Source: Nemertoderma westbladi
Taxonomy: Eukaryota > Animalia > Xenacoelomorpha
DNA: 64,000 bases
Direction of reading: 5' to 3'
Assembly (NCBI GenBank): GCA_032718475.1
Contig: JAUCBJ010005164.1
Coordinates: forward strand, 1 to 64,000
Part shown: one piece after another, positions 907 through 64,000 of the stretch
How positions within the stretch are numbered: the stretch's first letter is position 1
Layout: every line of letters begins with the position of its first letter
The notes under the pieces: generated by a model
The model's input: only the letters and a program-made list of their open reading frames with translations
The model's database searches: none
What the model was told of the DNA's origin: nothing
Position numbers and translations under genes: made by a program

Positions 907-3900
907 CTATAAGAAATTCATTTCGGGTTATATTATAATTGCGATGGTTCATTAATATAAACTTTGAGATAATAGATTTGAGATGGACTATCTGATCAAA
1001 GTTGGTATCTGGTCAAAGTCTTCCCTCCAGTAACCATATGTACATCCAAACGATTACTATCCTCTAACATAATACTTAATTAAATTATCATCATTAGATT
1101 TCTAGCCAACCACTCACTAGCGCAAGCTCCGGCGTACTCCATCGTTAGACCAGTGTTTCCCGTTCTACACGCAATAAGGAACAGATCCTCGGAATCCCTG
1201 TATGTGTTCCCGTCTGTTCCACAAACGACCCCTGGCATCGGCTGGCAATGGGGCGGTTGACATATACACTGACAACTCGGTTGCTCGTTGACAACAATGC
1301 AGGTCTGAAGTGGTCTGCAAACACCTTCGCGACAAACAGCTGAAAAATAAGCAAGGAAAATTGGGAATAGAGCAAATAATGTATAAAAAATATCAACAAA
1401 ATATATATTAAACGTCGAGTTTTTCACCAAACTGAACTAATTTTGAAAACTTACGTTCGCATATGTAACCATTTCCATTATAGCCGGGCTGACATGCGCA
1501 AGTATAACCACCGTCAATGTTGATGCAGGATCCCCAAAGATTATTGCAGTTATGGGAGCCATCCAGACATTCATTCACATCTAAGGGAGAAGATTATTAT
1601 CAGTTGTTGGTAACAAAAGTCATTCAGATGTGTGGATGCTTACCATAATATAAAAACAATACACTGCAATACAATGATGGTGATATTCCGTTACAGTACG
1701 ACTAACTAATACGACACTTACCTGTACAGCTATCCACACCGTTACCCGAATATCCTGCAGAGCAGAGACATGTATAAGATCCCACAGTATTGACGCAGTA
1801 TGCGTTGTCAGCGCATTGGTAGTCACCGGTACTGCACTCATTGATGTCCACACAGTTCGGTCCCCGACGTTGATATCCTGGGAGGCAGGCGCAGTCGTAG
1901 CTGCCTGGTGTGTTAGTACACTGGGAGTTCGCGCCACAAGAGTTGGAGCTAAAAGGGAAAATCATTGGATTAGTGCAGTTAGGCAGTTGGATTCGGGGTA
2001 GTCACACAGAATGGTTACATTATTATTTATCGTTGCATCGGGCATTTAGCTCGGCGCAACGATAAGCCAAACAGAAGATATGTAACATTGTATTTGTAAC
2101 TTTTACTTTCATGTACCTATTAATACCTATATACATTGCTTGGTGTATTGTTATTGTTTATGTTTACGTAATGTATACGAAATATATCATTTTTTTTTTT
2201 ATATATACATTACGAAATTTATATCTATAATAATGCTTTTTGATACGCAGTCACATAGAATAGACTAACCTGGAACTACACTCATTGACGTCGTCGCAAG
2301 TAAACCCGTTTCCGGAGTAACCATCCCGACACTGACAGTCGAATCCTCCATCCGTGTTGGAGCAGAGCGCGTTGGCGGAGCAGCTGGCCGATCCCTGGCA
2401 CTCGTCAACGTCGTTGCACAGCAACCCGGTACCCTGGTAACCGGCGGGACAGACACAGACATAGGAACCGATGGTGTTGCTGCAGGTCGCACTCGGATCA
2501 CAATCGGCTCGGTATGGACTCCCAATTGGCTCCAAACATTCGTTTATATCTGAGATGGGGAGTAATCGAAATATTGTTATCTTTATTTAAAATAAATACA
2601 ATATTTACGCGAATATCAAATAAAAAAATTGGAGAGATAAGTGGTTTAAATTAAAATAAGTAGACCGTTATGACTCGCTTTCCTATTTTGCGTCAATATC
2701 TTTATACTATAGGTCAGAAAAATATTAAATGTATTAAATATTAATATGAGTCTACAATTTGGTGTTCGACTCACCTTCACAAGAGTTTCCTACACGCCGG
2801 TATCCAAGTGGACATACGCATACATAGGATCCGGGTGTGTTAATGCACAGACCTACACCGCATATGTCTGTGTCGGAACATTCGTTGTCGTCTGTGTTAA
2901 ATAATAAATACAATATATATGTTCTATAATATATATGTCTTATATGTTCTATAATAAATAGAACTCCCAGACCATACCCAAAGAGAATAATAGACTAACA
3001 AATATAATGTCAAACAAAACACTTACTAACAATAATATACTATACTTCCCACACTAACCAATATACTTCTCACACTAACAAATATAACTCTCACACTAAC
3101 CAATATACTTATCACACTAACCAATATAACTCTCACACTAACCAATATACCTCTCGCACTAACGAATATACTTATCACACTAACCAATATAACTCTCACA
3201 CTAACCAATATACCTCTCGCACTAACGAATATACTTCTCAAACTAACGAAAATACTTATCACACTAACCAATATAACTCTCACACTAACCAATATACTTC
3301 TCACACTAACAAATATAACTCTCACACTAACCAATATACTTATCACACTAACCAATATAACTCTCACACTAACCAATATACCTCTCGCACTAACGAATAT
3401 ACTTCTCAAACTAACGAAAATACTTCTCACACTAACCAATATATCTATCACACCAGCCAATATACTTCCCTTCCCGCAATAACCAATATATTATCTCATT
3501 ATCCAATATAACTAAACAAATATTTTTCAAACTAAACAAATAATTATCACACGACCCAATATACTTCCCATACTAACCAAATACTTCCCACACTAACCAA
3601 TATAACACCCATACTAACCAAAATAGCTCCCACACTAACCGTCGCAAAGAAACTCTGGTCCCGGGGTGGCGTTCCCACTCTAACCAATATATTTCCCACA
3701 CTAACCGTCGCAAAGGAACTCTGGTCCCGGGCTGTCGTTACCACACTAACCAATACATTTCCACACAAAAAGTCGCCGAGGAACTCTGGTCCCGGGGTGG
3801 CGTTCCCATACTAACCAATATTTTTCCCACACTAACCGTCGCAAAGAAACTCTGGTCCCGGGCTGTCGTTACCACACTAACCAATACATTTCCACACAAA

Positions 3901-6900
3901 AAGTCGCCGAGGAACTCTGGTCCCGGGGTGGCGTTCCCACACTAACCAATATATTTCCCACACTAACCGTCGCAAAGAAACTCTGGTCCCGGGCTGTCGT
4001 TACCACACTAACCAATACATTTCCACACAAAAAGTCGCCGAGGAACTCTGGTCCCGGGGTGGCGTTCCCACACTAACCAATATATTTCCCACACTAACCG
4101 TCGCAAAGAAACTCTGGTCCCGGGCTGTCGTTACCACACTAACCAATACATTTCCACACAAAAAGTCGCAGAGAAACTCTGGTCCCGGGGTGGTGTTCCC
4201 ACACTGACCAATATATTCCCACACTAACCGTCGCAGAGGAACTCTGGTCCCAGGGTGGCGTTTCCACACTAACCAATATAACTCCCACACTAACTAATAT
4301 AATTCCCTCACTAACCAATATAATTCCCACACTAACCAATATAACTCCCACACTAACCAATATAACTTCCTCACTAACCAATATAATTCCCACACTAACC
4401 GTCGCAGAGGAACTCTGGTCCCGGGGTGGCGTTCCCACACTAACCAATATATTTCCCACACTAACCGACGCAAAGAAACTCTGGCCCGGGGTGGCGTTCC
4501 CACACTAAGCAATATATTTTCCGAGACAGGGGGGGGGGGGGGAACTCGACGCAAAACCCGCCTTGGCGAATTAATATCCCGCCTCAATGTTAAATTCTCA
4601 ATTTAGGGAAATCAGCTGGTTACAGTGTCACGTTATTTTAACCAAATTTGCTCGTATTCAGCTGTTATTTGCGTCGAATTTCCCCTGGAGAGGGATGAAT
4701 TTTCATTGCGTCCAGTCCCCCCCCCCCCCCCATCTGTATTTTCCACACTAACCGTCGCAAAGAAACTCTGGTCCTGGGGTGGTGTTCCCACACTAACCAC
4801 TATAACTCCACACTAACCAATATACTTCTCACACTAACGAATATACTTCTCGCACTAACCATTATATCTACCACAAGAGCCAATATACTTCCCACACTAA
4901 ATAATATACTTCTCACACAAATGAAATGTTTTTCAAACAAATAATTATCACACGACCCAATATAACTCCCACACTAACAAATATAACTCTCACACTAACC
5001 AATATACTTCTCACACTAACCAATATACTTCCCACACTAACCAAATACTTATCACACTAAATAATATAACTCCCACACTAACCAATATATTTCCCACACG
5101 AACCGTCGAAGAGGAATTCTGGTCCCGGGGTGGCGTTCCCACACTAACCAACATATTCCCACACTAACCGTCGCAGAGGAACTCTGGTCCCGGGGTGGCG
5201 TTCCCACACTAACCAATATAATTCCCACACTAACCGTCGCAGAGAAACTCTGGTCCCAGGGTGGCGTTCCCACACTAATCAATATATTCCCACACTAACC
5301 GTCGCAGAGGAACTCTGGTCCCAGGGTGGCGTTTCCACACTAACCAATATAACTCCCACACTAACTAATATAATTCCCACATTAACCAATATAACTCCCA
5401 CACTAACCAATATAACTTCCTCACTAACCAATATAATTCCCACACTAACCGTCGCAGAGGAACTCTGGCCCCGGGGTGGCGTTCCCACACTAACCAATAT
5501 ATTTCCCACACTAACCGTCGCAGAGGATCTCTGGTCCCAGGGTGGCGTTCCCACATTAACCAACATATTCCCAAATTAACCGTCGCAGAGGATCTCTGGT
5601 CCCAGGGTGGCGTTCCTACACTAACCAACATATTCCCACATTAACCGTCGCAGAGGAACTCTGGTCCCAGGGTGGCGTTCCTACACTAACCAACATATTC
5701 CCACATTAACCGTCGCAGAGGAACTCTGGTCCCAGGGTGGCGTTTCCACACTAACCAATATAACTCCCACACTAACTAATATAATCCCCACACTAACCAA
5801 TATAACTCCCACACTAACTAATATAATTCCAACACTAACCAATATAACTCCCACACTAACCAATATAACTTCCTCACTAACCAATATAATTGCCACACTA
5901 ACCGTCGAAGAGGAATTCTGGTCCCGGGGTGGCGTTGCCACACTGACCAATATATTCCCACACTAACCGTCGCAGAGGAACTCTGGTCCTAGGGTGGCGT
6001 TTCCACACTAACCAATATAACTCCCACACTAACCAATATAACTTCCTCACTAACCAATATAATTCCCACACTAACCGTCGCAGAGGAACTCTGGCCCCGG
6101 GGTGGCGTTCCCACACTAACCAATATATTTCCCACACTAACCGTCGCAGAGGATCTCTGGTCCCAGGGTGGCGTTCCCACACTAACCAACATATTCCCAC
6201 ATTAACCGTCGCAGAGGATCTCTGGTCCCAGGGTGGCGTTCCTACACTAACCAACATATTCCCACATTAACCGTCGCAGAGGAACTCTGGTCCCAGGGTG
6301 GCGTTTCCACACTAACCAATATAACTCCCACACTAACTAATATAATCCCCACACTAACCAATATAACTCCCACACTAACTAATATAATTCCAACACTAAC
6401 CAATATAACTCCCACACTAACCAATATAACTTCCTCACTAACCAATATAATTGCCACACTAACCGTCGAAGAGGAATTCTGGTCCCGGGGTGGCGTTGCC
6501 ACACTGACCAATATATTCCCACACTAACCGTCGCAGAGGAACTCTGGTCCCGGGGTGGCGTTAGCGCCGACTGGAACCGGGTGGAATCCGGCCCGACATT
6601 CGCATCGGAATCCGCCATCCGTATTGACGCACAGCTGGCTGTGGATCCGACACCAGTCCCGCTCCTCCGCACACTCATCGTCGTCTACGCAAGTGCCGGC
6701 GTCGTTGTGGTAACCTTCGTCGCAGACACAGATGTATGACCCCTCGGTGTTGATACAAGTACCGTGGGCTGAGCATGGACTACCGGCAGGGTCCTCGCAT
6801 TCATTCACGTCTACAATAATACCGAATTAGGCTATAAATATAACGATTTTCAAACGATGCAAATTGTATGACAATAACAATAACAATTAACTACTACTAG

Positions 6901-9900
6901 AAAAAATACTTCAGACTGTGGATGGGAGATTATAATATCAAAATAAGACAGTAGTCAATATCATTTTCCATGATACAGTTTAAATCGCACTCTCATATTT
7001 CCAATGGAAAGTGTAAAAGGGACACAAAGTATAAAAGACTTGTACTTTGCATTTGAACTGCTACAGTAATTATATTAAGTAGGCTGGCTGGCTGTAACTG
7101 AGGAAAACAATACCTTCGCAAACCGTTCCATCACCCTGGTAACCGACATTACAAGCGCAATAGAAACTCGCCGGTATGTTTACACAATGGGCATTCTCGT
7201 CGCATTCGGCTTCGCCATTCTCACATTCGTTGTCGTCTGTGAAATATAATTTTTTGAAAATCTGAACTTAGTGAAATGTCTCACAATGTGGCATATAAAA
7301 CAACTTTGAGAGTAATATGGTGATAGTGGCAATAAAAAATATGTGACGTAACTAATAATACAGTATTTCGATTTTTTCAGTATTCAAGGGTGAATGAAGT
7401 ATTTCATGATTCAAAAGTAGACTTGATGAAAGTGGATAAGCTTTAGCTGAAATATCTTAAAACATCCACTTTTAGTTAACGCGGTGATTACAAAATTAAC
7501 ATTATCTGGAACACATTTAATTAAATAAACTACATTATTATAACAACATTCTGTGATTAACCCATGATAATTGATAGCTAATTAGAAACAGGGAATCGGA
7601 TACCTTTGGCTGTAACAATAAGCTGTCTAAAACGATGGCTAGATACGATAATAGTCGTCCTAAATTGATTGAGGAAGTAAGTCGAAATTCGAAATATATT
7701 TTTCTGGACAAACCTGTAACTATGGTTAGAATGAAGGAAGGCAATTTTAGGAGTAAGTGGTTCGAAATGACAGTACCACCCGGTACTGAAATCGTATGGC
7801 GTTTTAGTGAAGCTAAGGAAGATGCAGAGGGGAGCCTCACACTGGAGTATCCCACGGGCTTTCCGATACCGCCTTTCCCAATTTGCTCGATTTATAGAGA
7901 CAGCGTAGTGAGTTTGCACAATGCATCTAATGAAATAGTGACAATCGAGGCGAAACATTCCTTCTGGGAATTAAATTTCCAAAGTCAAACGAAAGCAGTC
8001 AAATTTGAAGCCGGACTCAAACGAAAAATCGCTGAGCTCATGGGAGAATTCTGCCGAAACGGAGGAAAATTAGATCCTATCACCAAAGATGTCAGACGAT
8101 TCGCCAAAGAGACTCCGAGATGGATGGATGCATCTAACATGGCTGGGAGAAGAGGTATTTTTAAAAGATGTAACAGTTTGTTTTAACCAGGTTGTTTTCC
8201 TAAATAAAACATTAACTTCTAGCTGAGCAATGAAGATAAATGATAAAGAAAAGTAACAACAACTAGATTTATAAAAATCAAGGGGACAAAACTTGGGTGG
8301 AGGATGTGTATTAATGTCACACCAATTATCATAAATTATAAATTTTCATTGCTTTCCTAAGAAATAAATAAAATTTTAAATATATTCCACGATTTTTTTG
8401 CGGTTTAAAATTTTACAGAGCCGAAAACATCGCGCCTACAGTAAATAACAGAATATAGGTTTACTGACAAGAAGATAATTAATTACGTTAAATGAATATG
8501 CCTAATAATAATACACCAAGAACACATTAAAAACATCAATCCAATATGATTTAATCAAGCACTTCATTCCAAAGATTTATAATTAATCTGCAATGGTTTC
8601 AGACTGCGTAGCGTAAGCCGTAAGGCTCAATATAATTTATAATTATAATCCTTTTTGGCCATATTCTAGAATATTATTTAAGCCTAATAAAGAAACAAAC
8701 GAGTTCTTTGCAAGTGAAAACAGTCCCAACGAGATCTATTTGATTTGATTTATATTTTCTCATAATTCTAAAATTTCTTTCAAGTGTTATTGGCACCCCA
8801 ACACCAGCGATAAATACTTATGAAATTGAAAGTATTAATGATATTGTGTGAAAGTGTGAATATTATATTTAATTTAACATTTTATTGAGCTAATGTAGGG
8901 TGTTTAACATTCAACATAAATTCATACTCCGAATTAGAGTCGATAACCATAATATTGTGCTTTAGAAAAATTTCCACTTATGCCACTATATAATTATATA
9001 TTTACGTATATTTGTGTAATTTGCAACAACTATAAATATCGTCTTATTATTGTGTTATTCGTTAAACCGTATTTTAGCATTTATTCGTATTATAATATTA
9101 CTTATGCATTGCTATCCTATATATTTTCTATATCCTATTGTCATTTAGTAAGGATTAATATTATAGTGCAATTGAACCAGTTAATATAATGTATGTTTGT
9201 GGGATGGTTGCAATAGCTTAGAGCTAGTCGAGGCTACCATCTCACCAACTGACTATAATAGGAAAGTACTGTACGTAGAAATTAAATTAAATATAAAACA
9301 TAATGTTAGCAACAGGTATCATGTTCGATTTGTTTTTACGGAAATTCGCAGAGAATAGGATACATCTGAATTTAAAAAGAAACTCAAATCATGGTTAAAT
9401 TTGGCCGTTTAATTCAGGTTATATGGTCTATCAGATACTTTTTAAGGAGGATTTTAAAAATTTGTTCCTTTTTTGCCTTACAAATGTTATTCGGTAGCGC
9501 ATTCCAGAAAATAGGACCAGAAAATACCAGAGAAGGACTAGAAAATCTAGAATTCTAATTAAAAAAAAACTAAAAATATTGGGTCCAATTCATAAATTGA
9601 AGAAGTTTGTAATATGATTAAAACCGATAAAGTGATCAGTTTTTCATGATTAGTACATATAAAATGGAATAAGACCATTTGAAAGAATATTTGCCATATC
9701 TTAGCTGATCGGGAGCCACGTAGGCAGATGTAGTAGGTATTGTAGTAAGCTGACATCAATAGACCTCAATAAGTCGGCAGCGAACCCACAGCACCCAATC
9801 TCGCTTTTCCCAGTCCGGGCCTCGCGTTTCTCGGTGTCTCAGATAACAATCAAATAAGGTGATTTATTGATTTTGTAGTTTTCCCGACAGTAAAAATAAA

Positions 9901-12900
9901 CTATTAGACAATAAATTTCATATAATCGCGTAGGTACATGACAAATTTATTTAACAATTGACGTAACAATAGAATAGAGAGAAACCTACCGACACATATC
10001 CCTGAGATTGCCGAACGACTGAATCCAGGAACACAATCGCAAGTAATAGTGCCGGCTAGACTAACTGATACACAGTACTCGTTGGCCGGGCAATGATCAG
10101 CGGGTATATCCGAACATTTCGGGTCGGCTGAAAAATAATTTAATATTAAAATTACTAAATTGGCTTCTATCGCATCCGCTAAGGAATATTAGTCGCATTA
10201 TCTTTAACTTTGTAATTTTGTGTTGGTTTGCGAGTCAGTAACTAATTAACAGTATAAATAAACTATCAGTGAATGATACTAAATAATATAGTAGGCCTAC
10301 TACACAGACACCACATATCCTATGGGGAATACTTGCCTAGAAATTACGTTACATATTATTATTTTCCTATGCTTGCGAAATTATGCAGGTTAGTAAAGAA
10401 ATGGGTTACAGGGACAGGGTGACGGAACCAAAACAACAAACAAGAACATCTACGTAGATGATGACATCTACGGCTTACAAACTTCAAATACATTTGACAT
10501 ATTAAATTAAATTAATTACTTATTAAATTAGACAGTTTAATTAAAGTAACATATTTGAAACTGCATTGGTTAATTTTTTCCCCAACCACATATGTGATAT
10601 ACTTACGGTCACATCTAACGAATGCGTCGCCATGGAAACCGGGTTTACAAACGCAAGTAATTCCGCCTGGTGCGGATTCGTCTTCGACGCACATCGCATT
10701 GGCAACCTGACCACAGAGACCCCCTGGAAGAGAATGAGTTGCCATTAATATAGAGAGATACTATAGAGGTAAATTTGTACAATAAATTCTTTGTGGATTA
10801 GAACAACGCAAGCGAGTAAGTACTTAGGGACAGTTTTGATCAAATCTCCCTTAACTCTAAATGGGTACTTAAGCTGGAATGAGCTGGAATAGTAACGGAA
10901 AATGTAGTTTTTTAAAGTCCTTGTTTTGAATACTTAAATTAAATTAATATAATTAAAACAATAATTAATCAATGTTTCAGAGAGTCTATTCAGAAGCACA
11001 AAGACTGCACCCGGTACATACTGACCAGTCCCAAAGGACGCTCTACACCTTCTATACGTGTTGTGATGGTTTACTAAATGAAATGCGATGAGATCCTAGG
11101 ATGAGTGCTTCAGAGAATCAAATGGAATTATAAATTATTTAGTTGTAGCAATAATGCAACATTTTAAGAATAAACCTACATTTTCAATTTTGTACAGTAA
11201 ATAATTTTATTCACAATACAACAGAATAATAGTCTCGTGCCCACGTCAAACATTGTTACCAATCCGTCTGAATGGTGTTACTCACCTGGTTCATTTTGAC
11301 CATCACAAGGAAGCTCTATAAAGCACTCATCTGTCTCTGGGATGTAGATAGCGCCCGGTGGACACACACACTCAGGTTGTCCGTTATCGTTCACCTTGCA
11401 GACAGATTTCTTTGGACTGGTACACTTAATCCCATGACACGGTCCCGGAACTGAAAGGAATAGGTTAGAAACATTTACTCACTTAAGCTAGAGGTTACGA
11501 ATGATTCCCCACCTAATTATTCATATCAAGTGAATTCATAATTAATAATTTGAGAGGGAGGGAATGGGGAGTCGAACTTAATATGGTTACTTACAATCTC
11601 GTGAATACCTTCATGTCGATTTTATAGACTTACGTTCGCAATTTTTACCGTTCCCAAGTTTCGGAGGTACACACTGGCATCTGAAACCCCCGTCAGTGTT
11701 GATACAGATGGCATCGAAGGGATGGCAATCGTGTGTGTTCTCTGTACACTCGTTAATATCTGAAAATAAATACAATTATTCGTTTTAGTAAGTCAACGCA
11801 AAACAATTAACATCCACGTTAGAGATGAAAACGTCTGAAAAAAGTCAAGGAATTCCTTCATGCGAAACACCGACACCCGCCATTACTTAGACCGAAGTTT
11901 AGTTCGACAGTAATTAAATGCTCAGGGATATGATTCTTTAAAATACAATCTGTGGAGCAACTAGATTATTACATACAAGTACAACAGATATTGTTTTTGT
12001 TGCGCACACTAAAATTTATTACCCCGGTACAACATAATATATTTAAATACATAATAAGGTCAGTGTAATTGTTTACGAGTTCTGTATACAGAACTCGCCT
12101 TGATACATCTTTGTTAAAAAAAAAATGAAATAAAAAAAATGAAATAAAAAAAATGCAATTTAAAATGATTTCAAAAACGATATATATAATTATATTCTGA
12201 TACAAATGATCCTAACCTTTACAGCCACTGGGGTGATCTCTGTAACCCGATGGACACAGGCAGGTGAACCCAGGGTCTTCGTTCACACACTCCTCTCCCG
12301 CGTTGCAATCGTGAGTGCCTTCCTCACACTCATCAATATCAACACATTCCAAGCCGTTCCCGACAGCTCCTAAACACATATCGAAAAATAATAATAACAT
12401 AAATTATGTAATGTGATAAATACTACAATTTCATAATTTTAAATCATTTTGTGTAAATTTGATCATGTAAGTTGTGTCATTTAATTAAAATCCTGAGAAA
12501 ATTATTTTAAACAATACGGGATTTCTTGTCTCACGAATAAGTTTGGAACCTCTTTAAATAAAATAATTCATAACAATAAATAGTCTTACCGTCATTGCAA
12601 ACACACAGGAATCCGGGAGCAGTGTTAGTGCAGGATGCCCGATCTGCACACGGGTGCTCCTCACACTCGTTGATGTCGTCACATGCGGGTCCCTCGAACC
12701 CATTGCGACACTCACAGGAGTATGAACCAGGGTTGTTGGTGCAGGTAGCGACACCCACGCATGGGTTACTTGCACATTCATTTATGTCTGCAAATAAAAA
12801 ATGTGCATAAATTATATACCATAAGGCCAACAGGCATAGAGACCAATGTAACTTAACAATTTGTTGGAAATATCAGGTTTCTTCCATTATTGGCTCAAGG

Positions 12901-54900: not shown

Positions 54901-57900
54901 AAAATGTGAGATTTCTTAAATTGTATATTATATTATAATACATACAAAGCTATCGTATTAACACACATAATTAATTAACTGGTCACCCATAACCATTAAA
55001 ATCTAAGTAGGACAAAGTGATATCTCCAACAAAATACGTACGACGTACGTTAAAAACAAATCATACGCAATAATACCTAAAGTCTAGTACAAACACACGT
55101 GTGCCGTGTGTCCAAGTCTAGTCATACTGTACGCATCTACAAGTGCATCCATAGGTTGGTAGTAGGTACGTCCGTGTCCAATAATACGCAAGTCCAAGTC
55201 CATCATAAGTAGCTCCAAATGCAATAATACGTACGTCTTAATCAATCATAAGTCCTGCCAATAATCATACATGTCGTAACCGATGGACTCGTCTTCATTA
55301 GTGATAAACATATGTTGCAAATAGCTGCACCTTCGCCAAATAAAATCGATCAGCTGATCAATATAGTTAATGGACTCGCCGCCGGTACTCGTGATATAAA
55401 CACTTGTAAGGCCATCTAGATTGCCAGAATCAAATATTTCTTCCATATCCGACACTATATGATCGAATGAGGGTGAAGTAATATCTTCAATTTTAATACG
55501 AAGTTGAGTTAGTGATGGTAAATATTTCAGAGCTGTTATGAGACTCGAGTAACTTGACTCCAATAGTCGTAAGTCGAGAGAGAGAATGGAGTTGACACAA
55601 ACTATTTCATCTTCTCTCTGAAGCCTACAACCACTTAAAACCAAAGATTTTACATTAGGAAACAAACAAGACAATTGTGATAATGAGACTGACTCGTTGC
55701 AACCTGATAAACTGAAGGAGATGACCTGAGGCATGATAACTCCCTCATGGAAGCCCCGAGCGACAAGGTTGGGAGGATTGTGGGACATGTTTGCATCCAA
55801 AGACAATGAATATAACTTATCGAATTGTTTGAGCTTACGGAATAGGCCTGTTTCGGATTCATCGGTTATATTCCAACTCCAAAACAACTTGAGACTCTCC
55901 AAAGTATCCCGACAATAAGGAACAATGTACTCTAGATTCTTAGCAATAGGGACTCCCGGGCCGGTGTATAAAATATCTGCAGAGAACGGCCGGTCATAGA
56001 GATAAAAACTAGTGAAAGGAATTATCGGATTATGTTTCAAAGACAGTGGGAGCTGGAGCTGGTAACGGTGAATTAACTCATTGAGAAATTCCATGCTTCT
56101 ATCTACAATTACGGTGAAACGCGGGTGCATTAAATGAAAATCAACTAGAGTTTCAATAGTCAAATCATCACAGATACAGCCATCAAGAATTATGGTTCGC
56201 AGTTTCTCAAGTTTGGGCAGACAATAGAACAGAGCGAAGTCCAATCGACCCATAACGGAATCTGTAATGTGCAAAGTTTCAAGATTGGGACAAGAATTAG
56301 AGATGTTGCTAATAATCGTGAGATCTATATGGGAGAACTTAATCGTGGTGAGTTGAGGAAATTCACCAGAGAACGCAGACTCTAATATGAAGGGGTCAAA
56401 GAAGCCTGCAACTCTGGTGGTGTCCACTGTACGTAAAGCTACAGCCATCTTAGGAAACCATTCGATTAGAATAGGGACGATATCTTCAGGAAACTCTTTG
56501 AGAAATTCATCATCGAAAACCATATCAATAGGCCAAAAAGGCTTCAAACATTGCGATGGAAAAATATCGGAATAAATTTCCATAATTTCTTCAAGAGTTG
56601 GTTTCTCTCGCGGATGAATATTGTTCCAGTCAAACATCAGTTCCAGTTGATTGTAAGAAAGAATGTAAGCATGCAGCACATACTTATATATCTTAGTGAG
56701 GAGTTTGGGAGCCAAACCTTTGTGGAACCACTTCGATATGATGTCACTCTGGTCACCCTCGGTACTACGATCTGCAACGTTTCCCCACTTCCTACTTTCA
56801 GCAGTTACAATCCCGCGGGCCAACGATCGTATTAAGTTGGCCATGGCGATTTCCTGTAACGTCAGAAGACGGCAATCGGATTTCAGAATAACCGGTCCCT
56901 TTCCTTTAGCTTTACTCGCGTACCGGTAGGCACACATTGTCTACCGGTATTCCTAATAAATAACTTCTAATAACAAAGTACCGAACGGTAATTATAAAGA
57001 AAACCTAAACTGTACTCAGTACTATTTTAATTACAATACAAATATTTAATAAGGCTCGTTCGTTATTCAGATGTATGTTAATAAATAACAGAATGATGTT
57101 TTATTTAATTAGTGACAGTTTTATTTAGGTCAGTAGGGTTAAGGCCTGACCAACTAACCCTAACCAAAATAATAAACCAAATATACCCATAATAAAACAA
57201 TCATCCATTGATCCATAGCCTCAACAAATTCACTGTACCGTACAATCCCGTAAATTAAAAACAATTTAGTATTTTGTATTGGAGTATTGGTGTATTCAGC
57301 CAATTTAGGAACCGGTATTGTATTATTGTAAGTACCGGTACTTGAAACGTGACTGTACCGAACAGACGATTTATGGTAAGTTATTGCCAGCAGCAGCTAT
57401 GGGTTTCACGCTCTAGGGGCCTACCGCACACCTTAAACAAGCGTATTAGCAGCTTAATTAAACTGTTGGCCTAATTAAAATGGCCTCCCAATCCTACAAT
57501 CACTGAATCAATACTACAACAGCAGTAAGCCTACTGCAGAAATAAAATTCAAATTTCCCGCTTAAATGCTAAAAATCCAAATACAATTAATTTTTTCGCC
57601 ACAGATTGTGTCACATTGTACGAAAGTACTACAAATGTTAACGTTCGCATTGTACATATTATGTAGTTCAGTTGAGTAGCGAGGTTTCTGGCGCCCTGTG
57701 ACTGGCGCTAACCCCCTCCCCCCGCATTTTAAAAGATATATAATATTGCTTGCCTTATCCAACTACTGGTAAATATAAATAAGGCCCCAACACATTGTTA
57801 AATTATAAGAGAAAAGGCTGGCTGGGTGGATGACTGGGTCGGGGTGGAGGCATTATTGGAATGTGGCTGGGACTACAACGTTTAGATAATGTATGGCTTC

Positions 57901-60584
57901 CTTATCTTTATGCTTATAGACCGAATTTTCTAATTTGGCACCCTTCGCAAATAGACGCCCTGTAACACTTGTCCCCCTTAGTCGGCGTTAGAGCTTCGGG
58001 GCTGGCTAACCAAAACAATAAACGATCTCAATAACAATACAGCAGGGAAAGAAGCAGGTAACAGAGGCAAGCTTTTCTAACCAAAACAATAAACGATCTT
58101 GATAATAATATATGGAAATATATGGAGCAGGTTACAGGGGCGGGCTTCTCTATACAAAACAATGAACGATATCATTAACAGTACAGGGAAAGGAGCAGGT
58201 TACACCAGAAGCAGGCTTTTCTAACCAAAATAATAAACGATCGACTTACAGTATGTACATATATTGAAGGAAAGAAAACAGGTTATACAGAGTAGGCTTT
58301 TAAAGGGTAAGTAGGCTACTTAATATCAAAATTATGTAATTATAGATAATAAATTACGAACAGTATAGATAGTTACTACATTACATATCACAATCAGAAT
58401 CGATACGTTGTATTGCAGTACTGAATATGCACAAGTAAAGTCTATAAATTAATTCTCTGTAAGTCTGATATACAGTAGGACTTAAGGGGGGGTATACCCC
58501 CCCATGAACCTTTTTTTTCAATGGCTGTCAATTAGTGTTAAATAAGAATATTGCTATTTTGTCATGGTCAACCGCTGTATGGAAGGCCAAATAGCCTTTA
58601 AAGTAAAATTTGAAAATTTGTAGCCTCCCCTAGCGGCTGGCGGCGGAATTAAAGATTCAACTAAAATTGCTACTAGTTCCTCAATTTTGGTCCAAATTTC
58701 ATGAAACCAACTTTTTTGGACTCAGCGTGATCGACTCTACAAAAGTTATCGTATAGAATTTTTAAATAGCCCATTGTATTTTAATTAATTAATTTTATTA
58801 ATTAATTATCATATGTTTAATTAAAAATGGCTAATTAGAAAAAATGGTAATATTTATTAACTTTTATATTATTAACTATTAACTTTTGATAACTTTTAAA
58901 GAGCTTCCAAAGCTCGTTCGAATGAGCCATAAATTAAGAAAATTGGTTGAAAAATGACGGAGGAGTAGTAATTTGAATATGAAAAATGTCATTCCGAGAA
59001 AATGCCCTTCAAAGTTTAAACCGTCCCGCTAAAATTGGCTGTCTGTGTTCTGGTTGGTTAATTATTTCTGGCACGAAGGATGCACACCAACGAGCTAAAA
59101 TATTCATTACTGGGGTTTTCGGGGTCGCTGATTTCATTTCCGATGTCAGTTTTAATTTTTGGTGGAATCTAGTCTATCTGTCTGTCTGTCGGTCTTCTGT
59201 CTTTCTTACAATTTGACGGACAGACCGTCATACGGAAAAACAGTGATAACTCGAGAACTGAAAGAGGTCTCACTAAGCGGTTTTCAGATTTGTAATCCTC
59301 ATTAAATTCTGCTCTAGGTGAAATAAAGAAACCAGAATTTGAAAATTTTACCTGAGGGGGGGGGGGGGGGGGGGGGGGGGCGTGGGGTATACCCCCCCCC
59401 CCCCCCCCCCCCCCCCCTTAAATCTGAAATAAAACTGGCGCAAAAAAACGTCAAAAAAAACTGAGAGAAAATTAAAAAAGAGATTTACGGGAGCGGTGTA
59501 ACTGTGGTCGACTACTAATCAATGATGTTGGATGGATCTCCAAGACAAATCGGTGTTCATAATACGTCGTTACATTTTAGACAATAATATTATTATTGTT
59601 TTTGTTTGTTATATGTAAATATCAGGTTTGCGGTGATTAAACTAACGAACAACCTAGGCCTAATTACCCGAATGGACCAACTCACCTTGTCTGCAAGTGC
59701 ACGTAAATCCAGGGAAGTTATCTACGCAGTCAGCATTGATATGGCAGTTGTGGGTACCAGCGGTACATTCGTTAATGTCTGCATGTGGAAAGTAAATTAA
59801 AATTAAAGTATATTGTAATGGTCGGGTCGGTTATATTCAAATTAACTTGATGTTAAGGCAAAATTACAGTATCTAATAATACGGGCGCATTTACTTGGAA
59901 GTTAATTGAAACTAAGGAAAAAATAAAATATCGGAATTAAATAAAGTATAATTTTTTTGGCTACCACAACTGGTCTTCCCGTGATAAATAAAGTATAACG
60001 TACTGCGACAGGTGGTCGGGTCTCCAGTTGGTTCGAATCCTGGTAGGCATTCGCAGGTAAAAGTCCCAAGTCCTTCTACACATATAGTAGTCTGCCTGTC
60101 GCAGTTATCACGCCCCAGTGCGCAGTTTTCAACGGCTACAAATAAGTAAAAGTCACAAACAATTCATTTAATAAGTAAACGAAATAAACGAAAAAATCCA
60201 ACAACAGTTAACACGAGAGAACGTTATGTTACAACCTAGTATTTACCTGAAATAAAGCTTAAGTGGGTGTTGTTATGGCTATGGGCAACACAAATGAGAG
60301 TAATACAATTGTTGATTCGCAAAAGTGGGAAAAAAATAAATTCAAAAAAAGTTATAGTGTATTATAGACGGGGCAAACACAAGAACGCAGTTTAAATACT
60401 TACGAATGCATTCACCATACCCATCTCCGTCTGGGTCGTGCAAAGTAAATCCTTCCAGACAGGTGCAGTGGAATCCTCCTGGAAAGTTCTCGCAATAAGA
60501 CACAGACTCGTCGCAGTCATCTTCTCCCTCAACACATTCGTTAAAATCCTCACATTCTTCGGTGTCATAGTTATAATCGAAGCC
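688..60584 (-). CDS. Large multi-exon cbEGF-repeat extracellular protein (fibrillin-like EGF arrays, no TB domain seen), with one ShKT exon and two follistatin/Kazal exons; partial
   Basis: Exons read by eye (transcript order), GT-AG with compatible phases where checked: 60584-60404, 59778-59686, 46975-46820, 43728-43606, 42580-42458, 41221-41096, 40920-40828, 37613-37458, 35660-35538, 34351-34229, 33455-33330, 33110-33018, 31967-31812, 31331-31164, 30051-29926, 28886-28764, 28347-28219, 28070-27978, 26682-26530, 24944-24822, 24568-24446, 24192-24064, 23722-23630, 23186-22995, 22896-22759, 22478-22344, 22201-22013, 17644-17431, 16914-16703, 16267-16145, 15565-15353, 15235-15095, 14645-14508, 14038-13899, 13757-13639, 13430-13327, 12787-12590, 12369-12217, 11759-11634, 11450-11286, 10723-10607, 10127-9990, 7236-7114, 6810-6529, 2891-2775, 2549-2270, 1948-1722, 1580-1455, 1339-1118, 906-688. 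Translations repeatedly show the cbEGF consensus D(I/V/D)(N/D)EC...C...C.(N/D)..G.(F/Y).C.C..G(F/Y). Confidence 0.9.
1118..1339 (-). CDS. Exon: follistatin-N + Kazal-like domain 1
   Basis: [26 protein letters not shown]...[21 protein letters not shown]...MEYAGAC (VCGTDGxTY Kazal motif); tttcag acceptor, GTGAGT donor. Confidence 0.82.
3030..6562 (-). repeat. Composite splice-donor-derived tandem array (about 65-bp exon-end+donor units and 21-bp donor units)
   Basis: About 29 copies of AACGCCACCCCGGGACCAGAGTTCCTCTGCGACG|GTTAGTGTGGG (end of exon 6810-6529), interspersed with 21-bp GTTAGTGTGGGAGTTATATTG units; 561-bp higher-order duplication (identical ORFs 5681..5950 and 6242..6511). Confidence 0.9.
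4523..4736. mobile_element. MITE with 8-bp TSD (hAT-like), copy 1
   Basis: TATTTTCC at 4515-4522 and 4737-4744; ends GAGACAGGGGG...CCCCCATCTG; interior homologous to 23818-24043. Confidence 0.75.
7635..8186 (+). CDS. Nested antisense single-exon ORF, 183 aa, possible PH/EVH1-like fold
   Basis: Non-repetitive ORF, more GC-rich than the AT-rich intron 7237-9989; start context AAACGATGG; AATAAA at 8203-8208; [18 protein letters not shown] resembles the last strand/helix of EVH1/RanBD-type PH folds (inference). Confidence 0.6.
   Translation: MARYDNSRPKLIEEVSRNSKYIFLDKPVTMVRMKEGNFRSKWFEMTVPPGTEIVWRFSEAKEDAEGSLTLEYPTGFPIPPFPICSIYRDSVVSLHNASNEIVTIEAKHSFWELNFQSQTKAVKFEAGLKRKIAELMGEFCRNGGKLDPITKDVRRFAKETPRWMDASNMAGRRGIFKRCNSLF
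14150..14472 (+). mobile_element. 5'-truncated non-LTR retrotransposon (RTE-like) 3' end with (TAG)n tail
   Basis: Degenerate ORF end ...WPHG...GQP...[17 protein letters not shown], similar to RTE-clade C-termini, followed by a short 3' UTR and a GTAGTAGTAG tail; inverted partial copy at 17152-17228. Confidence 0.6.
14646..14850 (-). repeat. 18-nt tandem duplication of the acceptor plus degenerate 21-bp repeats
   Basis: GTTACAG|GAGGTG occurs twice, 18 nt apart (exon starts 14663 and 14645); upstream AAGCAGTAAACATACAGACTC-like units. Confidence 0.7.
16299..16408. repeat. 22-bp minisatellite x5
   Basis: CAAAATGTTTGAATTATTACTA repeated. Confidence 0.9.
17038..17435 (-). repeat. About 20-bp donor-derived minisatellite
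   Basis: Units TAATTAGTG(C/T)AG|GT(G/T)GGTGG repeat the real donor TGCAG|GTGGGT at 17431/17430. Confidence 0.75.
17152..17228 (-). mobile_element. Short 3'-end copy of the RTE-like element inserted in the minisatellite
   Basis: Near reverse complement of 14386-14470 including the (TAG)n tail; flanked by AACCTACACTA on both sides. Confidence 0.7.
17822..22031 (-). repeat. 46-bp splice-donor tandem array, about 91 copies
   Basis: Unit CACTGCGCCAATACCGAGG|GTAGGTAGTAGTATAGAGTAGGTAGCT = last 19 nt of exon 22201-22013 (HCANTEG) plus first 27 intron nt. Confidence 0.95.
22995..23186 (-). CDS. EGF exon with polybasic insert (DRRRRRELP)
   Basis: [41 protein letters not shown]; paralogous exon 26682-26530 reads ECANGNNNC without the insert. 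Confidence 0.85.
23818..24043. mobile_element. MITE with 8-bp TSD (hAT-like), copy 2
   Basis: Flanked by CCATATAT/CCATCTAT; same GAGACAG...ATCTG ends and interior as 4523-4736; paralogous intron near 28200 lacks it. Confidence 0.75.
25485..25546 (-). mobile_element. tRNA-derived SINE head (degenerate)
   Basis: Minus strand TGGCGTAGCGTGG (A-box-like) ... GGTTCCAATC (B-box-like) at tRNA spacing. Confidence 0.4.
27469..27540 (+). pseudogene. tRNA-like cloverleaf (pseudo-tRNA or SINE head)
   Basis: Acceptor stem GCCTCCG/TGGTGGC (one mismatch), stem CCTGA/TCGGG with non-canonical loop ACGTTTA, T-arm GCGGG-TTCAATC-CCCGC, T-run just downstream; 18-bp direct repeat TTATTAATATTTTCTAAA at 27435 and 27602. 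Confidence 0.7.
31164..31331 (-). CDS. Exon encoding an ShKT-type domain (missing from the ORF track)
   Basis: [55 protein letters not shown]; CxxTCxxC signature; 168 nt, phase 1-1, ttccag/GTAGGT boundaries. Confidence 0.8.
31968..32953 (-). repeat. 56-bp splice-acceptor tandem array, about 17 copies
   Basis: Unit CTCTCTCGTTTT(C/A)TCCATAG|GATACCGAGCTGTCTGCTAAACGGATCCCTGAGTGA versus real acceptor CTCTCTCGTTTTCTCCACAG|GTTACCAAGGTGACGGC. Confidence 0.88.
33767..33922. repeat. 51-bp tandem repeat x3
   Basis: CTCAGTAAGGTTCGCTCGCAACACTACATGTATACGTAATCTACCCTATAA. Confidence 0.9.
35132..35414 (+). mobile_element. tRNA-derived SINE
   Basis: A-box TGGTGTAGTGG, B-box GAGTTCGATCC, GC-rich body, (TTTAC)n tail. 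Confidence 0.7.
35980..37554 (-). repeat. 106-bp splice-donor tandem array, about 15 copies
   Basis: Unit = 3' about 97 nt of exon 37613-37458 ([32 protein letters not shown]) + GTAGGTCTA. Confidence 0.95.
37749..40869 (-). repeat. 57-bp splice-donor tandem array, about 54 copies
   Basis: Unit TGTACCGACACTGTCGGATCGTTCACATGTACCTGCATAGAAG|GTAAGTTATACTGC = end of exon 40920-40828 plus donor. Confidence 0.95.
41990..42300. mobile_element. Possible non-autonomous Helentron/DINE-like element
   Basis: (GACA/GACG)n microsatellite at 42192-42228 followed by a GGCTCGCCC...GGCTCGCCCCAC end motif also seen near 397-408. Confidence 0.3.
43909..46916 (-). repeat. 106-bp splice-donor tandem array, about 28 copies
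   Basis: Same unit as 35980-37554, attached to paralogous exon 46975-46820; one unit has a 45-bp internal duplication near 45555; terminal unit ends AAAG|GTAAGG. Confidence 0.95.
48399..50921 (+). CDS. Anoctamin/TMEM16 family protein, 840 aa, intronless CDS, nested antisense
   Basis: Family motifs [90 protein letters not shown]...RAQNIG.W, LAFVI.FEH. Paralog cannot be assigned by eye. Confidence 0.96.
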   Translation: MYNTSVSLEMGHNISTGDGDNSSLYFEGGNKKIDYVFVYKSKDFESGKVAEMRENFREDIEEIGIEVEVDDGDESDGDKRIRCYKLHATWELLCKFAEILKLMMPLKVHEIKTHKDIFIARKMHDILFTNEDHRKMAPFKIAKAADFMTEPRDMFFTSTQRSQLLWAALQCYNKYDGNSDDDNFEVKPDIKTLLTNGTFKEAYPLHDGDYDEYSGQKGRKWLLENWATLRKVRNKQPLEEIKAYFGEKFAIYFSWLGYYTFMLIFPAIVSIGVFMYGLVSSIMIDDDLSKEVCGDDVGNITMCPLCDSVCPYWHLRDSCNTLATYPIFNNEASILFSIFMVLTVTLFLELWKRNQNEINYDWDLFYFEEGDRPEFEAKAKHSRVNQVTQSIEPFVPRLCKWSRLLGVILVTFLMILVVVAAVFGIILYRISVALAFSQRFSPQTSSNLVGVTSGIINYIGIKILGTIYEKIACWLTVLECQRTDARYEKSYTQKLFLFQFVNNYACLFYIAFIKGKLQKLPNQIFKIGGTKGNEACDANGSCMTDLLIQLATLMACEALQDNIVEYVMPIAMNYLRRKCDCNFTKNAENLSQWKIDYRLQPQDILGLFDEYIKMVIQFGYVTIFVVAFPLAPLLALINNILEIRLDANKFIKHYRRPFPDRAQNIGVWLRILKGVTAISVVSNAFIIAFTSDIITQEVYKRAVSPTGSMVGYTNHSLSIFYVKDFLPGQMPNRNLTKGFGDSDIIEPETCRFHGYYAHSGEPGTSESTYTLTTFYWHSMAANLAFVIAFEHVVFLLQVALAYAIPDMPGHVAKSLKRRQERQGNALNMAFVTNNNERQLF
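50932..51409. mobile_element. TIR MITE with probable 4-bp TSD (ATTT) just after the anoctamin stop
   Basis: GTGGCGGCCACCCTAGAAACG...CGTTTCTAGGGTGGCCGCCAC (21-bp perfect, about 35-bp imperfect TIR), ATTT on both sides. Confidence 0.85.
52079..52730. repeat. 26-bp minisatellite, about 25 copies
   Basis: ATCGTACTGCGTACTACAATGTTATT, nearly invariant. Confidence 0.95.
53366..54350. mobile_element. Foldback/TIR-type element with internally repeated termini
   Basis: (AAAAATATCGCGAGT)x3 at 53368-53413 and its reverse complement x2 at 54318-54349. Confidence 0.55.
55246..56937 (-). CDS. Nested single-exon LRR-type protein, 563 aa, with putative BC-box
   Basis: Long open frame; degenerate LRRs ([60 protein letters not shown]); N-terminal [10 protein letters not shown] resembles a BC-box. 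Confidence 0.8.
   Translation of the reverse strand: MCAYRYASKAKGKGPVILKSDCRLLTLQEIAMANLIRSLARGIVTAESRKWGNVADRSTEGDQSDIISKWFHKGLAPKLLTKIYKYVLHAYILSYNQLELMFDWNNIHPREKPTLEEIMEIYSDIFPSQCLKPFWPIDMVFDDEFLKEFPEDIVPILIEWFPKMAVALRTVDTTRVAGFFDPFILESAFSGEFPQLTTIKFSHIDLTIISNISNSCPNLETLHITDSVMGRLDFALFYCLPKLEKLRTIILDGCICDDLTIETLVDFHLMHPRFTVIVDRSMEFLNELIHRYQLQLPLSLKHNPIIPFTSFYLYDRPFSADILYTGPGVPIAKNLEYIVPYCRDTLESLKLFWSWNITDESETGLFRKLKQFDKLYSLSLDANMSHNPPNLVARGFHEGVIMPQVISFSLSGCNESVSLSQLSCLFPNVKSLVLSGCRLQREDEIVCVNSILSLDLRLLESSYSSLITALKYLPSLTQLRIKIEDITSPSFDHIVSDMEEIFDSGNLDGLTSVYITSTGGESINYIDQLIDFIWRRCSYLQHMFITNEDESIGYDMYDYWQDL
58005..58300. repeat. Degenerate about 75-bp repeats related to the MITE interior
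   Basis: GGAGCAGGTTACAG...CTAACCAAAACAATAAACGATC units, resembling 23885-23930. Confidence 0.5.
58486..59417. mobile_element. Non-autonomous DNA transposon with TTAA TSD and GG termini (Kolobok-like)
   Basis: TTAA|GGGGGGGTATACCCC ... GGGGTATACCCCC(n)|TTAA; no ORF. Confidence 0.75.
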
Positions 60585-60708
60585 CTAGAAGGAAGACACA
60601 TAGTTCCACTAGGAATTTGTTATTATTTTAAAACAATTTTCATTCAACTTAACGTAATAATATTTGTGAGCATATTTCAATCTCCCCCACCTAATAATCT
60701 ACCTCCAG

Positions 60709-60899
60709 TAATGTATGACTAATGTATGACTAATGTATGACTAATGTATGACTAATGTATGACTAATGTATGACTAATGTATGACTAATGTATGACTAAT
60801 GTATGACTAATGTATGACTAATGTATGACTAATGTATGACTAATGTATGACTAATGTATGACTAATGTATGACTAATGTATGACTAATGTATGACTAAT
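60709..60899. repeat. 11-bp minisatellite, about 17 copies
   Basis: TAATGTATGAC repeated. Confidence 0.95.
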
Positions 60900-61007
60900 A
60901 TTATGACAATCTATACATTCCAATATATCAAATACATTCTCAACAAGGGTAGATCAAGATAATTTAATTTATATCATCAAATAAGCGATGCTTTAATTAT
61001 GGCTACC

Positions 61008-62059
61008 AATTAAAGTCATCCCAAAATTGATGAAAATTTCACCAAAAAAATTTTTTATACCAAATTAAATAATGTGACCCCCAAAAAAATTACTCAACAC
61101 CAAATAAAATAAAGTCACCCAAATAAAATTATTGAAACACCAAAATAAATTTTTCAAAACCAAAAAACATTATTCAACACCAAAACCAATTATTCAATAC
61201 CATAATAAAAATGCTCCCCAAAACCAATTATTAGCACCAAAATAAATGACAATACCCCCAAAATAATTACAAATTTTCCCAAAACAAATACATTTTAGCC
61301 CAAAATAAATACATTTTCCCCCAAAACAAATACCTTTTCCCCCAAAACAAATACATTTTAGCCCAAAATAAATACATTTTCCCCAAAACAAATACATTTT
61401 AGCCCAACATAAATACATTTCCCCCCAAAACAAATACATTTTAGCCCAAAATAAATACATTTTCCCCAAAACAAATACATTTTAGCCCAAAATAAATACA
61501 TTTGCGCCAAAACAAATACATTTTCACCCAAAATAAATACATACAGTAATCCCCCAAAATATATACTATACTACTGCAGCAATAGGCCTCGCACTTCCTG
61601 GAAGTTAGACAAAAAGTTCAGTACTGCCGTAATACGGAAACCTAATAACATAGGCAAAAATAGATAGGCAATAAGGCCTAATAGGTAAGAATACTGTAAC
61701 TGAAGACTGAAGCATGCGCCCATGTGAAGAATACCAGGATTTAATATAAAATATTTGGTGCTGGAATAATTTTTTTGATGACAAGTAATTATTTTTGGGG
61801 GAAAAATAATTGTTTTTGGGGAATCAATAATTGTTTTTGGGGGTAGAATAATTGTTTTTGTGGGATGAATAATTGTTTTTTGGGGGATGAATAATTGTTT
61901 TTTGGGGGAAGAATAATTGTTTTTGAGGGATGAATGATTGTTTTTGGTGAAATGGATATTCAATATTGGGGGATGTGAATTGGTGATACAAAAAAATATA
62001 TTTGGTGGAAAATAATTTATTTTGGTGTTAAATCATCTAATTTGGGGTGGCATTCAATT
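61008..62059. mobile_element. Foldback-like element
   Basis: Left arm of CCAAAA-rich 21-bp repeats, right arm of TTTTGG-rich repeats, imperfect inverted termini, unique core about 61560-61740. Confidence 0.55.
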
Positions 62060-62376
62060 ACTGGCGTTGAATTATTCATGTAATTTAATTTATCGTTCAT
62101 TCCTTTCAAACTCATTCATTTATTTACTGAAAATGTTCCAGCTCACAAGCGGATTTTTGTATTAGAAGTGAATTTACAAAAGGTGTAATTTGATGTGTGT
62201 TAGCTTCCATGCTGAAGATACATCTTAGCCTATATAATGTCAATAGCTTTCTAGATTCATATTTACCCTACATTATGTTATAATAAATTAGTCATGCGCA
62301 CTTCTATTAGCTCTGTGATTAACTCAACCTCAACTGACTGGTTGATAACTTCGTAATAGGAGAATATTTAATAAAA

Positions 62377-64000
62377 CTTACAGGAAAGCATTCACAGCTG
62401 AAACCTGGGTCCCCATCAATGCATCCTACTTACCGGGAAGCATTCACAGCTGAAACCTGGGTCCCCATCAATGCATTCTACTTACCGGCAAGCATTCACA
62501 GCTGAAACCTGGGTCCCCATCAATGCATTCTACTTACCGGGAAGCATTCACAGCTGAAACCTGGGTCCACAACAATGCATTCTACTTACCGGGAAGCATT
62601 CACAGCTGAAACCTGGGTCCACAACAATGCATTCTACTTACCGGGAAGCATTCACAGCTGAAAATTGGGTCCACAACAATGCATTCTACTTACCGGGATG
62701 CATTCACAGCTGAAACCTGGGTCCCCATCAATGCATTCTACTTACCGGCAAGCATTCACAGCTGAAACCTGGGTCCCCATCAATGCATTCTACTTACCGG
62801 GAAGCATTCACAGCTGAAACCTGGGTTCACAACAATGCATTCTACTTACCGGGAAGCATTCGCAGCTGAAACCTGGGTCCACAACAATGCATTCTACTTA
62901 CCGGCAATCATTCAAATCTGAAAACTGGGTCCCCATCAATGTATTCTACTTACCGGCAAGCATTCACAGCTGAAACCTGGGTCCCCATCAATGCATTCTA
63001 CTTACCGGGAAGCATTCACAGCTGAAACCTGGGTCCCCATCGATGCATCCTACTTACCGGGAAGCATTCACAGCTAAAACCTGGGTCCACAACAATGCAT
63101 TCTACTTACCGGCAAGCATTCACATCTAAAACCCAGGTCCCCATCAATGCATTCTACTTACCGGCAAGCATTCACAGCTGAAACCTGGGTCCCCATCAAT
63201 GCATTCTACTTACCGGCAAGCATTCACAGCTGAAACCTGGGTCCACAACAATGCATCCTACTTACCGGGAAGCATTCGCAGCTGAAACCTGGGTCCACAA
63301 CAATGCATTCTACTTACCGGCAAGCATTCACATCTAAAACCCAGGTCCCCATCAATGCATTCTACTTACCGGCAAGCATTCACAGCTGAAACCTGGGTCC
63401 CCATCAATGCATTCTACTTACCGGGAAGCATTCACAGCTGAAACCTGGGTCCACAACAATGCATTCTACTTACCGGCAAGCATTCACATCTAAAACCCAG
63501 GTCCCCATCAATGCATTCTACTTACCGGCAAGCATTCACAGCTGAAACCTGGGTCCCCATCAATGCATTCTACTTACCGGGAAGCATTCACAGCTGAAAC
63601 CTGGGTCCACAACAATGCATTCTACTTACCGGCAAGCATTCACATCTGAAACCTGGGTCCCCATCAATGCATTCTACTTACCGACAAGCATTCACAGCTG
63701 AAACCTGGGTCCCCATCAATGCATTCTACTTACCGGGAACCATTCACAGCTGAAACCTGGGTCCCCATCAATGCATTCTACTTACCGGCAAGCATTCACA
63801 GCTGAAACCTGGGTTCCCCATCAATGCATTCTACTTACCGGGAAGCATTCACAGCTGAAACCTGGGTCCCCATCAATGCATTCTACTTACCGGCAAGCAT
63901 TCACAGCTGAAACCTGGGTCCACAACAATGCATTCTACTTACCGGGAAGCATTCACAGCTGAAACCTGGGTCCACAACAATGCATTCTACTTACCGGGAA
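62377..64000 (-). repeat. 52-bp splice-donor tandem array, at least 31 copies (runs off the window)
   Basis: Minus unit TGCATTGATGGGGACCCAGGTTTCAGCTGTGAATGCTTCCCG|GTAAGTAGAA = CIDGDPGFSCECFP, a phase-0 donor matching the phase-0 acceptor of exon 60584 (GFDY...). Confidence 0.92.

Follow-up and report, generated by a model that had tools for sequence, protein, structure and literature searches.

Here we report that the introns of a gene encoding calcium-binding EGF repeats, located in a 64,000-bp stretch of Nemertoderma westbladi DNA (contig JAUCBJ010005164.1, positions 1 to 64,000; hereafter, the window), contain eight tandem repeat arrays whose units span an exon-intron boundary of that gene. 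With a probability of roughly 70%, we interpret these arrays as 'mirage' minisatellites, which have grown by ordinary, recombination-based repeat turnover and are tolerated because splicing at the exon-proximal site removes them. The arrays are real and non-random within the window, and their main interest lies in the cause of the bias toward junctions. The class itself is already known from the mirages of amphioxus and the variable number tandem repeats (VNTRs) of the human F7 and ABCA7 genes, and the locus described here is unusually dense.

Arrays were detected with Tandem Repeats Finder, and the anatomy of their units is given in gene sense, as exon plus intron nucleotides. The original prediction of at least eight intronic arrays covering about 18 kb, over a quarter of the window, was confirmed, as all eight were recovered at their places and periods and together make 18,454 bp, or 29% of the window. 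The host gene, the arrays, and two short junction duplications are as follows.

688..60584, minus strand: host gene, modelled with 51 exons that total 7,615 nt and encode 2,538 aa, stop-free; calcium-binding EGF repeats followed by two Kazal-type exons.
3041..6562, minus strand: 65/21-bp donor array at exon 6529-6810; 65-mer of 34 exon and 31 intron nt.
17039..17432, minus strand: 20-bp donor array at exon 17431-17644; 5 exon and 15 intron nt; degenerate; 394 bp.
17822..22031, minus strand: 46-bp donor array at exon 22013-22201; 19 exon and 27 intron nt; about 91 copies.
31962..32966, minus strand: 56-bp acceptor array at exon 31812-31967; 50 intron and 6 exon nt.
35986..37554, minus strand: 106-bp donor array 106a at exon 9 (37458-37613); 97 exon and 9 intron nt; about 15 copies.
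37749..40870, minus strand: 57-bp donor array at exon 40828-40920; about 41 exon and 16 intron nt; about 54 copies.
43910..46916, minus strand: 106-bp donor array 106b at exon 4 (46820-46975); 97 exon and 9 intron nt; about 28 copies.
62376..64000, minus strand: 52-bp donor array; 46 exon and 6 intron nt; 31 or more copies; continues off the window.
14640..14671, minus strand: two-copy 18-bp acceptor duplication at exon 34 (14508-14645).
46970..47033, minus strand: short duplication with a second acceptor-junction copy about 50 nt upstream, at exon 4 (46820-46975).

Seven arrays lie on the donor side and one on the acceptor side, and seven of the eight adjoin a modelled exon. The 52-bp array is tied to its exon by translation and phase only: its source exon lies beyond position 64000, its donor, of phase 0, matches the phase-0 acceptor at 60584, and its unit consists of an EGF exon tail followed by GTAAGT, a motif present 32 times in the array. 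Exon-tail copies are followed by GT in 203 of 211 cases (27/27 in 106b, 50/53 in the 57-bp array, 13/13 in 106a, 89/90 in the 46-bp array, and 24/28 in the 65-mer), and the 56-bp array holds 15 decoy acceptors that end in TAG, the exon-proximal site being CAG. The anatomy thus agrees with the expectation that the units span the boundary and keep the donor GT (seven arrays) or the acceptor AG (one array). Each 46-bp unit contains two GTAGGT motifs and a sub-copy that begins at the GT, and the nested 21-mer of the 65/21-bp array likewise begins at the donor, with only 1 nt of exon overlap; such re-copies starting at the donor GT suggest two successive duplications. With about 180 donor-like sites in one intron, the locus is a dense natural example of load on first-site selection.

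No relation in length or sequence exists between the units of different arrays, with the expected exception of the paralogous 106-bp pair. The exon-tail consensus sequences of 106a and 106b differ at 1 of 97 nt, and these two arrays represent one event and are not independent. Variants that run through a whole array and are absent from the functional exon were found at two sites in the 57-mer, one in the 46-mer, and two in 106a, and they are carried by 53/53 copies of the 57-mer and 86/90 copies of the 46-mer. Terminal copies are degenerate or partial, and the arrays show higher-order patterns. The 65/21-bp array is broken by a dispersed-repeat insert near 4520-4740, and the 20-bp array is interrupted at 17154-17227 by a piece of a dispersed repeat. 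A scan of all 102 modelled junctions revealed two further junction duplications, those listed above for the acceptors of exons 4 and 34. Each has two copies, and both are seed-stage mirages.

Of six sequencing runs, none of them recorded as RNA, five contain the stretch, and contigs and read depth were compared with the window in four (X1 to X4). X1 and X2 come from different samples and different studies, X3 shares its sample with X2, and X4 derives from a third sample. These checks covered the edges of the 46-, 56-, and 65/21-bp arrays, where depth is no measure of copy number. Contigs from X1 and X2 both end at position 21996, the start of the last 31-mer that holds the exon-specific base 22026, and depth at the edge of the 46-bp array reaches 879.5 in X1 against a baseline of about 19 and 276.3 in X2 against about 29, with little rise in X3 (25.1). 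The edge bin of the 56-bp array is raised in all three runs (98.6 in X1, 57 in X2, and 283.2 in X3). The raw-read contigs of two samples thus support the 46- and 56-bp arrays, which are not assembly artefacts. The same explanation for the arrays as a whole, which would draw on array lengths beyond the reach of contigs and on the chance that X1 is the window's own source, is very improbable, as array-wide variants missing from the exon, higher-order patterns, and dispersed-repeat inserts in two arrays also argue against assembly error.

The dispersed repeats within the arrays have further copies in the window. An element of about 200 bp with inverted ends, likely a miniature inverted-repeat transposable element (MITE), occurs at 4520-4740, inside the 65/21-bp array, and at 23824-24016, and depth over 23824-24017 is very high in all four runs compared. 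Both 14387-14470 and 17154-17227 hold the tail, with its terminal run of TAG, of a dispersed repeat present in very many copies, and it is the latter, inverted piece that splits the 20-bp array.

Although labelled 'DNA?', run X4 behaves as spliced RNA. In its record 9 (3,782 nt), 15 of 15 listed joints coincide with model introns between 6810 and 16703, all of them CT..AC on the plus strand, and the loose end of the contig at 6529 is identical to window positions 2862-2891, with which the following exon begins. Splicing therefore takes the first donor of the 65/21-bp array and skips the array in full. Record 24 joins exon 27 (22344-22478) to exon 28 (22012-22201) and leaves the window sequence at 22012, where the 46-bp array has its first donor, going no further into the array, with 42 letters continuing beyond. 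Depth of X4 in both edge bins equals that expected from exon-only cover (574.7 and 8.6), and no use of distal sites was seen in its contigs at the edges of these two arrays, where contigs would drop rare isoforms. The RNA-like evidence reaches two of the eight arrays (65/21 and 46) and comes from contigs of one run, with little or no X4 cover for most exons above 22900; the long contig stops after 79 nt of exon 16703-16914. At the exon 34 seed, the exon-proximal acceptor fits the X4 contig, whose coordinates could not accommodate another 18 nt (joint side 137). For the six arrays outside the reach of these contigs, we infer that the first site is used as well. Only 2 of the 203 distal donors in five arrays are in frame and stop-free, both in the 57-mer and each adding 19 aa, and none of the 15 decoy acceptors of the 56-bp array is; by established rules of nonsense-mediated decay (NMD), transcripts using distal sites would be degraded. 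The proposal that such duplications survive through exon-proximal splicing is thus supported by the RNA-like contigs at two arrays and by the frame-breaking distal sites, but it does not explain the enrichment of arrays at junctions.

The same observations bear on the possibility that the arrays have been selected as decoys or as alternative sites, which tune expression or add an EGF-like peptide. This idea could appeal to the hundreds of intact sites, including the GTAAGT donors, to the two in-frame, stop-free donors of the 57-mer, and to the human ABCA7 precedent, in which a change in splicing is linked to array length (PMC5954066). We consider it quite unlikely, since no X4 contig enters the array at the 65/21 or 46 edge, 201 of 203 distal donors lead out of frame or into a stop, and paralogous exons lack an array or carry a different one (a 57-mer donor array after exon 8 and a 56-mer acceptor array after exon 13). 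The predicted function of decoy sites in tuning expression or isoforms accordingly found no support here, and the arrays are probably of no importance as a splicing device.

Mirage minisatellites, as defined in amphioxus (PMC3087553), have units spanning the boundary of a host exon and intron, which is the case here; many of their copies keep the GT or AG, as do those described above; regular mRNA is made from the authentic site, which was found at the 65/21- and 46-bp arrays; and they evolve in concert with the boundary copies excluded, as seen here too. Mirages are further marked by length polymorphism and somatic instability; in the present data, depth varied from sample to sample, but depth gives no copy number. 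In the mechanism that we propose, a small duplication across an exon-intron boundary would spare the exon along with its first donor (or last acceptor), and the extra copies would fall within the intron and be spliced out with use of the exon-proximal site. Such a seed would presumably grow head-to-tail by unequal exchange or repair slippage, and expansion would favor units that are rich in GC and contain exon sequence, against the AT-rich background of the introns. The unrelated units, degenerate ends, and inserts in two arrays are as in neutral turnover, and both the neutrality of the arrays and this mode of expansion are likely. Intron gain by tandem duplication was considered and rejected: the open reading frame (ORF) needs no extra intron, and the positions of array introns are common to array-free paralogous exons (13/19/24 for exon 8; 14/20/25 for exons 4 and 9).

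Amphioxus mirages have been described in Adh3, the globins BflGb6 and BflGb9, troponin C, and PGBD5 (PMC3087553, PMC3902484); those of Adh3 and the globins affect donors as well as acceptors, have units of 10-160 bp, leave splicing normal, and evolve in concert, and their origin was called unclear (PMC3087553; PMC3902484). They share the anatomy and splicing outcome of the arrays reported here, so that the doubt whether the phenomenon had been described before can be dismissed. The locus differs from the amphioxus cases in packing eight arrays, 18.5 kb in all, into one window, with up to about 91 copies compared with 3-6 in BflGb6, in having one array common to two paralogous exons, and in the enrichment estimate given below. 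In the 37-bp VNTR of human F7 intron 7, the first unit likewise spans the exon-intron junction, the most upstream donor is chosen, and the others stay silent; the donors further downstream, though identical, offer the first no competition (PMC1557585), which contradicts, for that gene, the assumption that duplicated splice sites compete in cis. Unlike the present locus, F7 has a single array of 5-9 copies that was tested in minigenes, and it has no acceptor-side case (PMC1557585). The 25-bp VNTR of human ABCA7 intron 18 ranges from 12 to about 427 copies and its unit starts at the GT donor, as does the 21-mer here; in that gene, some splicing at the second donor and exon skipping linked to repeat length have been measured, the former at a low level, and nothing comparable is shown for the arrays of this window (PMC5954066). 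Human segmentally duplicated genes contain variable internal tandem repeats at exon-intron boundaries that, as here, differ between paralogs, but that study focuses on new introns inside exonic repeats, and its paralogs are whole genes rather than exon blocks (PMC2812944). In plants and algae, repeats are enriched near, not across, intron ends (PMC3887541). We found no genome-wide enrichment test of junction-spanning repeats in any animal in a literature search that left most subscription papers outside.

For the estimate within the window, repeat finder rows were merged into 20 arrays with a period of at least 10 and approximately three or more copies; rows with fewer than 3 copies and mononucleotide runs were excluded. 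The 106-mer was counted once, giving 19 arrays, and every array was collapsed to one unit. Under the null model, a unit of the same length was placed anywhere but wholly inside an exon or nested ORF, and the spanning of junctions was counted. Junction-spanning arrays numbered 7 of 19, compared with 2.0 expected (p=0.0015; this and the following enrichment p-values are optimistic, as the hypothesis and the 900-bp cut used below were both taken post hoc from the same single locus). The junction arrays have a GC content of 0.43-0.54, richer than that of the other arrays (Mann-Whitney p=0.003), the value for introns being 0.33, and matching for GC lifts the expectation from 2.0 to 3.2. The first 20 intron nucleotides at array donors also have a raised GC content (0.46 vs 0.32, p=0.009), a result that we discount because three units place exon-derived bases there and the 106-mer is counted twice.

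Several points weigh against the mirage reading, or at least against its sufficiency. The excess remains under the GC-matched null (7 observed vs 3.2 expected, p=0.02), and all six arrays of at least 900 bp are junctional (p=3e-5; GC-matched, p=0.001). Since the null already bars fully exonic units, tolerance alone does not yield a junction excess, and composition together with tolerance is an incomplete account of it. At the edge of the 65/21-bp array, depth in X2 (sample S2) is only about 2.6 times the baseline and the contig stops at 6529, so this array may be short or diverged in that sample. The RNA evidence consists of contigs from one run labelled 'DNA?' that derives from a third sample, and the arrays may be absent from that genome. 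Finally, ABCA7 shows a little splicing at the second donor and isoform levels that track repeat length, so that neutrality is not assured (PMC5954066).

The original prediction had also proposed a mutational process targeting exon-intron boundaries, and here the results are mixed. The excess that survives GC matching is consistent with it, but the ends of the units lie no closer to the junction than expected from a uniform distribution (p=0.56, or 0.58 including the two seeds), and two-copy seeds are not commoner at junctions (2/95) than in the intronic background with arrays masked (2.2%; 1.0% in its GC-richer part). Clustering of breakpoints at the junction was thus rejected, and no microhomology was seen by eye at the breakpoint of the 106-mer. 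Uniform unit ends and the lack of seed enrichment imply that any bias acts on expansion and not on aiming at the splice site, and it appears to lie in which seeds expand. These two negative results also make it improbable that a lesion coupled to splicing or transcription, such as an R-loop, a paused polymerase, or U1-bound nascent RNA, directs template switches to the splice site, although seven of eight arrays are on the donor side and both the 21-mer and the 46-mer sub-copy begin at the GT.

A further explanation concerns recombination anchored in exons. Strand invasion would start in exons, which offer the best homology between alleles or paralogs, tracts would run on for a few tens of bases in the intron before stopping, and out-of-register re-annealing would duplicate the boundary, after which the repeats would expand. 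This scenario is compatible with the mirage reading with regard to splicing and differs from it with regard to cause. In the region 22995-46975, the exon pairs 4/9, 5/10, 6/11, 7/12, 18/23, and 19/24 differ by 5 synonymous and 7 non-synonymous changes in 244 codons, and their flanks are 85-95% alike over about 15-65 nt. The interiors of the introns gave no blastn match in four of the five intron pairs tested, while 18/23 aligns in part; the pairs 8/13, 17/22, and 16/21 are only 82-85% alike. Near-identical exons with diverged introns would fit exon-centred gene conversion with tracts on the scale of the repeat units, as judged from sequence comparison. In agreement, the 106a and 106b units are almost identical although the introns past the two arrays align only at the far 49 nt, and the intron parts of the donor units (6-31 nt) are comparable in length to the alike flanks. 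The persistence of the junction excess under GC matching adds to this. On the other side, three of the seven independent arrays (46, 20, and 65/21) are found on exons without a close paralog (best identity 0.54-0.62), by which ectopic recombination between paralogs was rejected as the sole cause; unit ends are no nearer to junctions than uniform placement gives, and the case draws on the sequence of a single locus. We therefore regard exon-anchored recombination as a possible but rather doubtful cause. In its broader form, which we hold equally tentatively, mirages would be the footprint of exon-centred recombination, in which the same short tracts homogenise exons, copy their edges into introns, amplify them, and transfer arrays between paralogs. 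If true, this would give a cause for the mirage class and allow the density of mirages to serve, from sequence alone, as a marker of recombination focused on exons in animal genomes.

With a junction excess beyond tolerance and exon-centred homogenisation on the same length scale, the locus is a place to test the origin of mirages. It is also a trap for annotation and assembly, as copies of the 106-mer read as EGF exons.

The exons of the host gene were set from cysteine-rich reading frames and sequence between 60584 and 688. Every intron of the model is GT-AG, the phases chain, and the joined frame of 2,538 codons has no stop; the gene extends past both ends of the model. Eight segments were scanned against Pfam, which gave EGF_CA in three test exons, Kazal_2 in the last two exons, and none in one exon. 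The GC content is 51% in exons and 33% in array-free introns, and exons 4-13 and 16-25 are duplicated blocks of five.

The 12 non-junction arrays total 2,523 bp. The expectation that such minisatellites are small holds for this total, but not for every comparison, as the 20-bp junction array (394 bp) is smaller than the 26-mer (658 bp) and a 21-mer (501 bp) among them. The following non-junction minisatellites and nested ORFs were noted.

52073-52730: 26-mer in 25 copies, 99% alike.
60709-60899: 11-mer in 17 copies.
61042-62045: AT-rich 20/21-mers, in opposite orientations around 61550-61780.
48399-50921, plus strand: intronless 840-aa anoctamin ORF with the Anoctamin and Anoct_dimer domains both complete, lying antisense inside the 12.7-kb intron.
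55246-56937, minus strand (that of the host gene): intronless 563-aa ORF in the 12.7-kb intron; weak LRR_4 match.

A 12.7-kb intron of the host gene thus contains two intronless ORFs, encoding an anoctamin and a weakly LRR-like protein. Proteins of hemichordates, molluscs, echinoderms, and vertebrates all share 36-40% identity with the nested anoctamin (about 40% for the best matches), which is likely a retrocopy. In a 2.75-kb intron, the stretch 7600-8150 (plus strand) looks coding and has no X4 cover; it is possibly a decayed mobile-element fragment. Within the run of EGF exons, exon 31164-31331 (minus strand) is a non-EGF exon with no Pfam match, and its cysteine spacing is what we take to resemble a ShK-type domain. 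The EGF exon 22995-23186 (minus strand) is broken by a run of five arginines, possibly a proprotein-convertase site.

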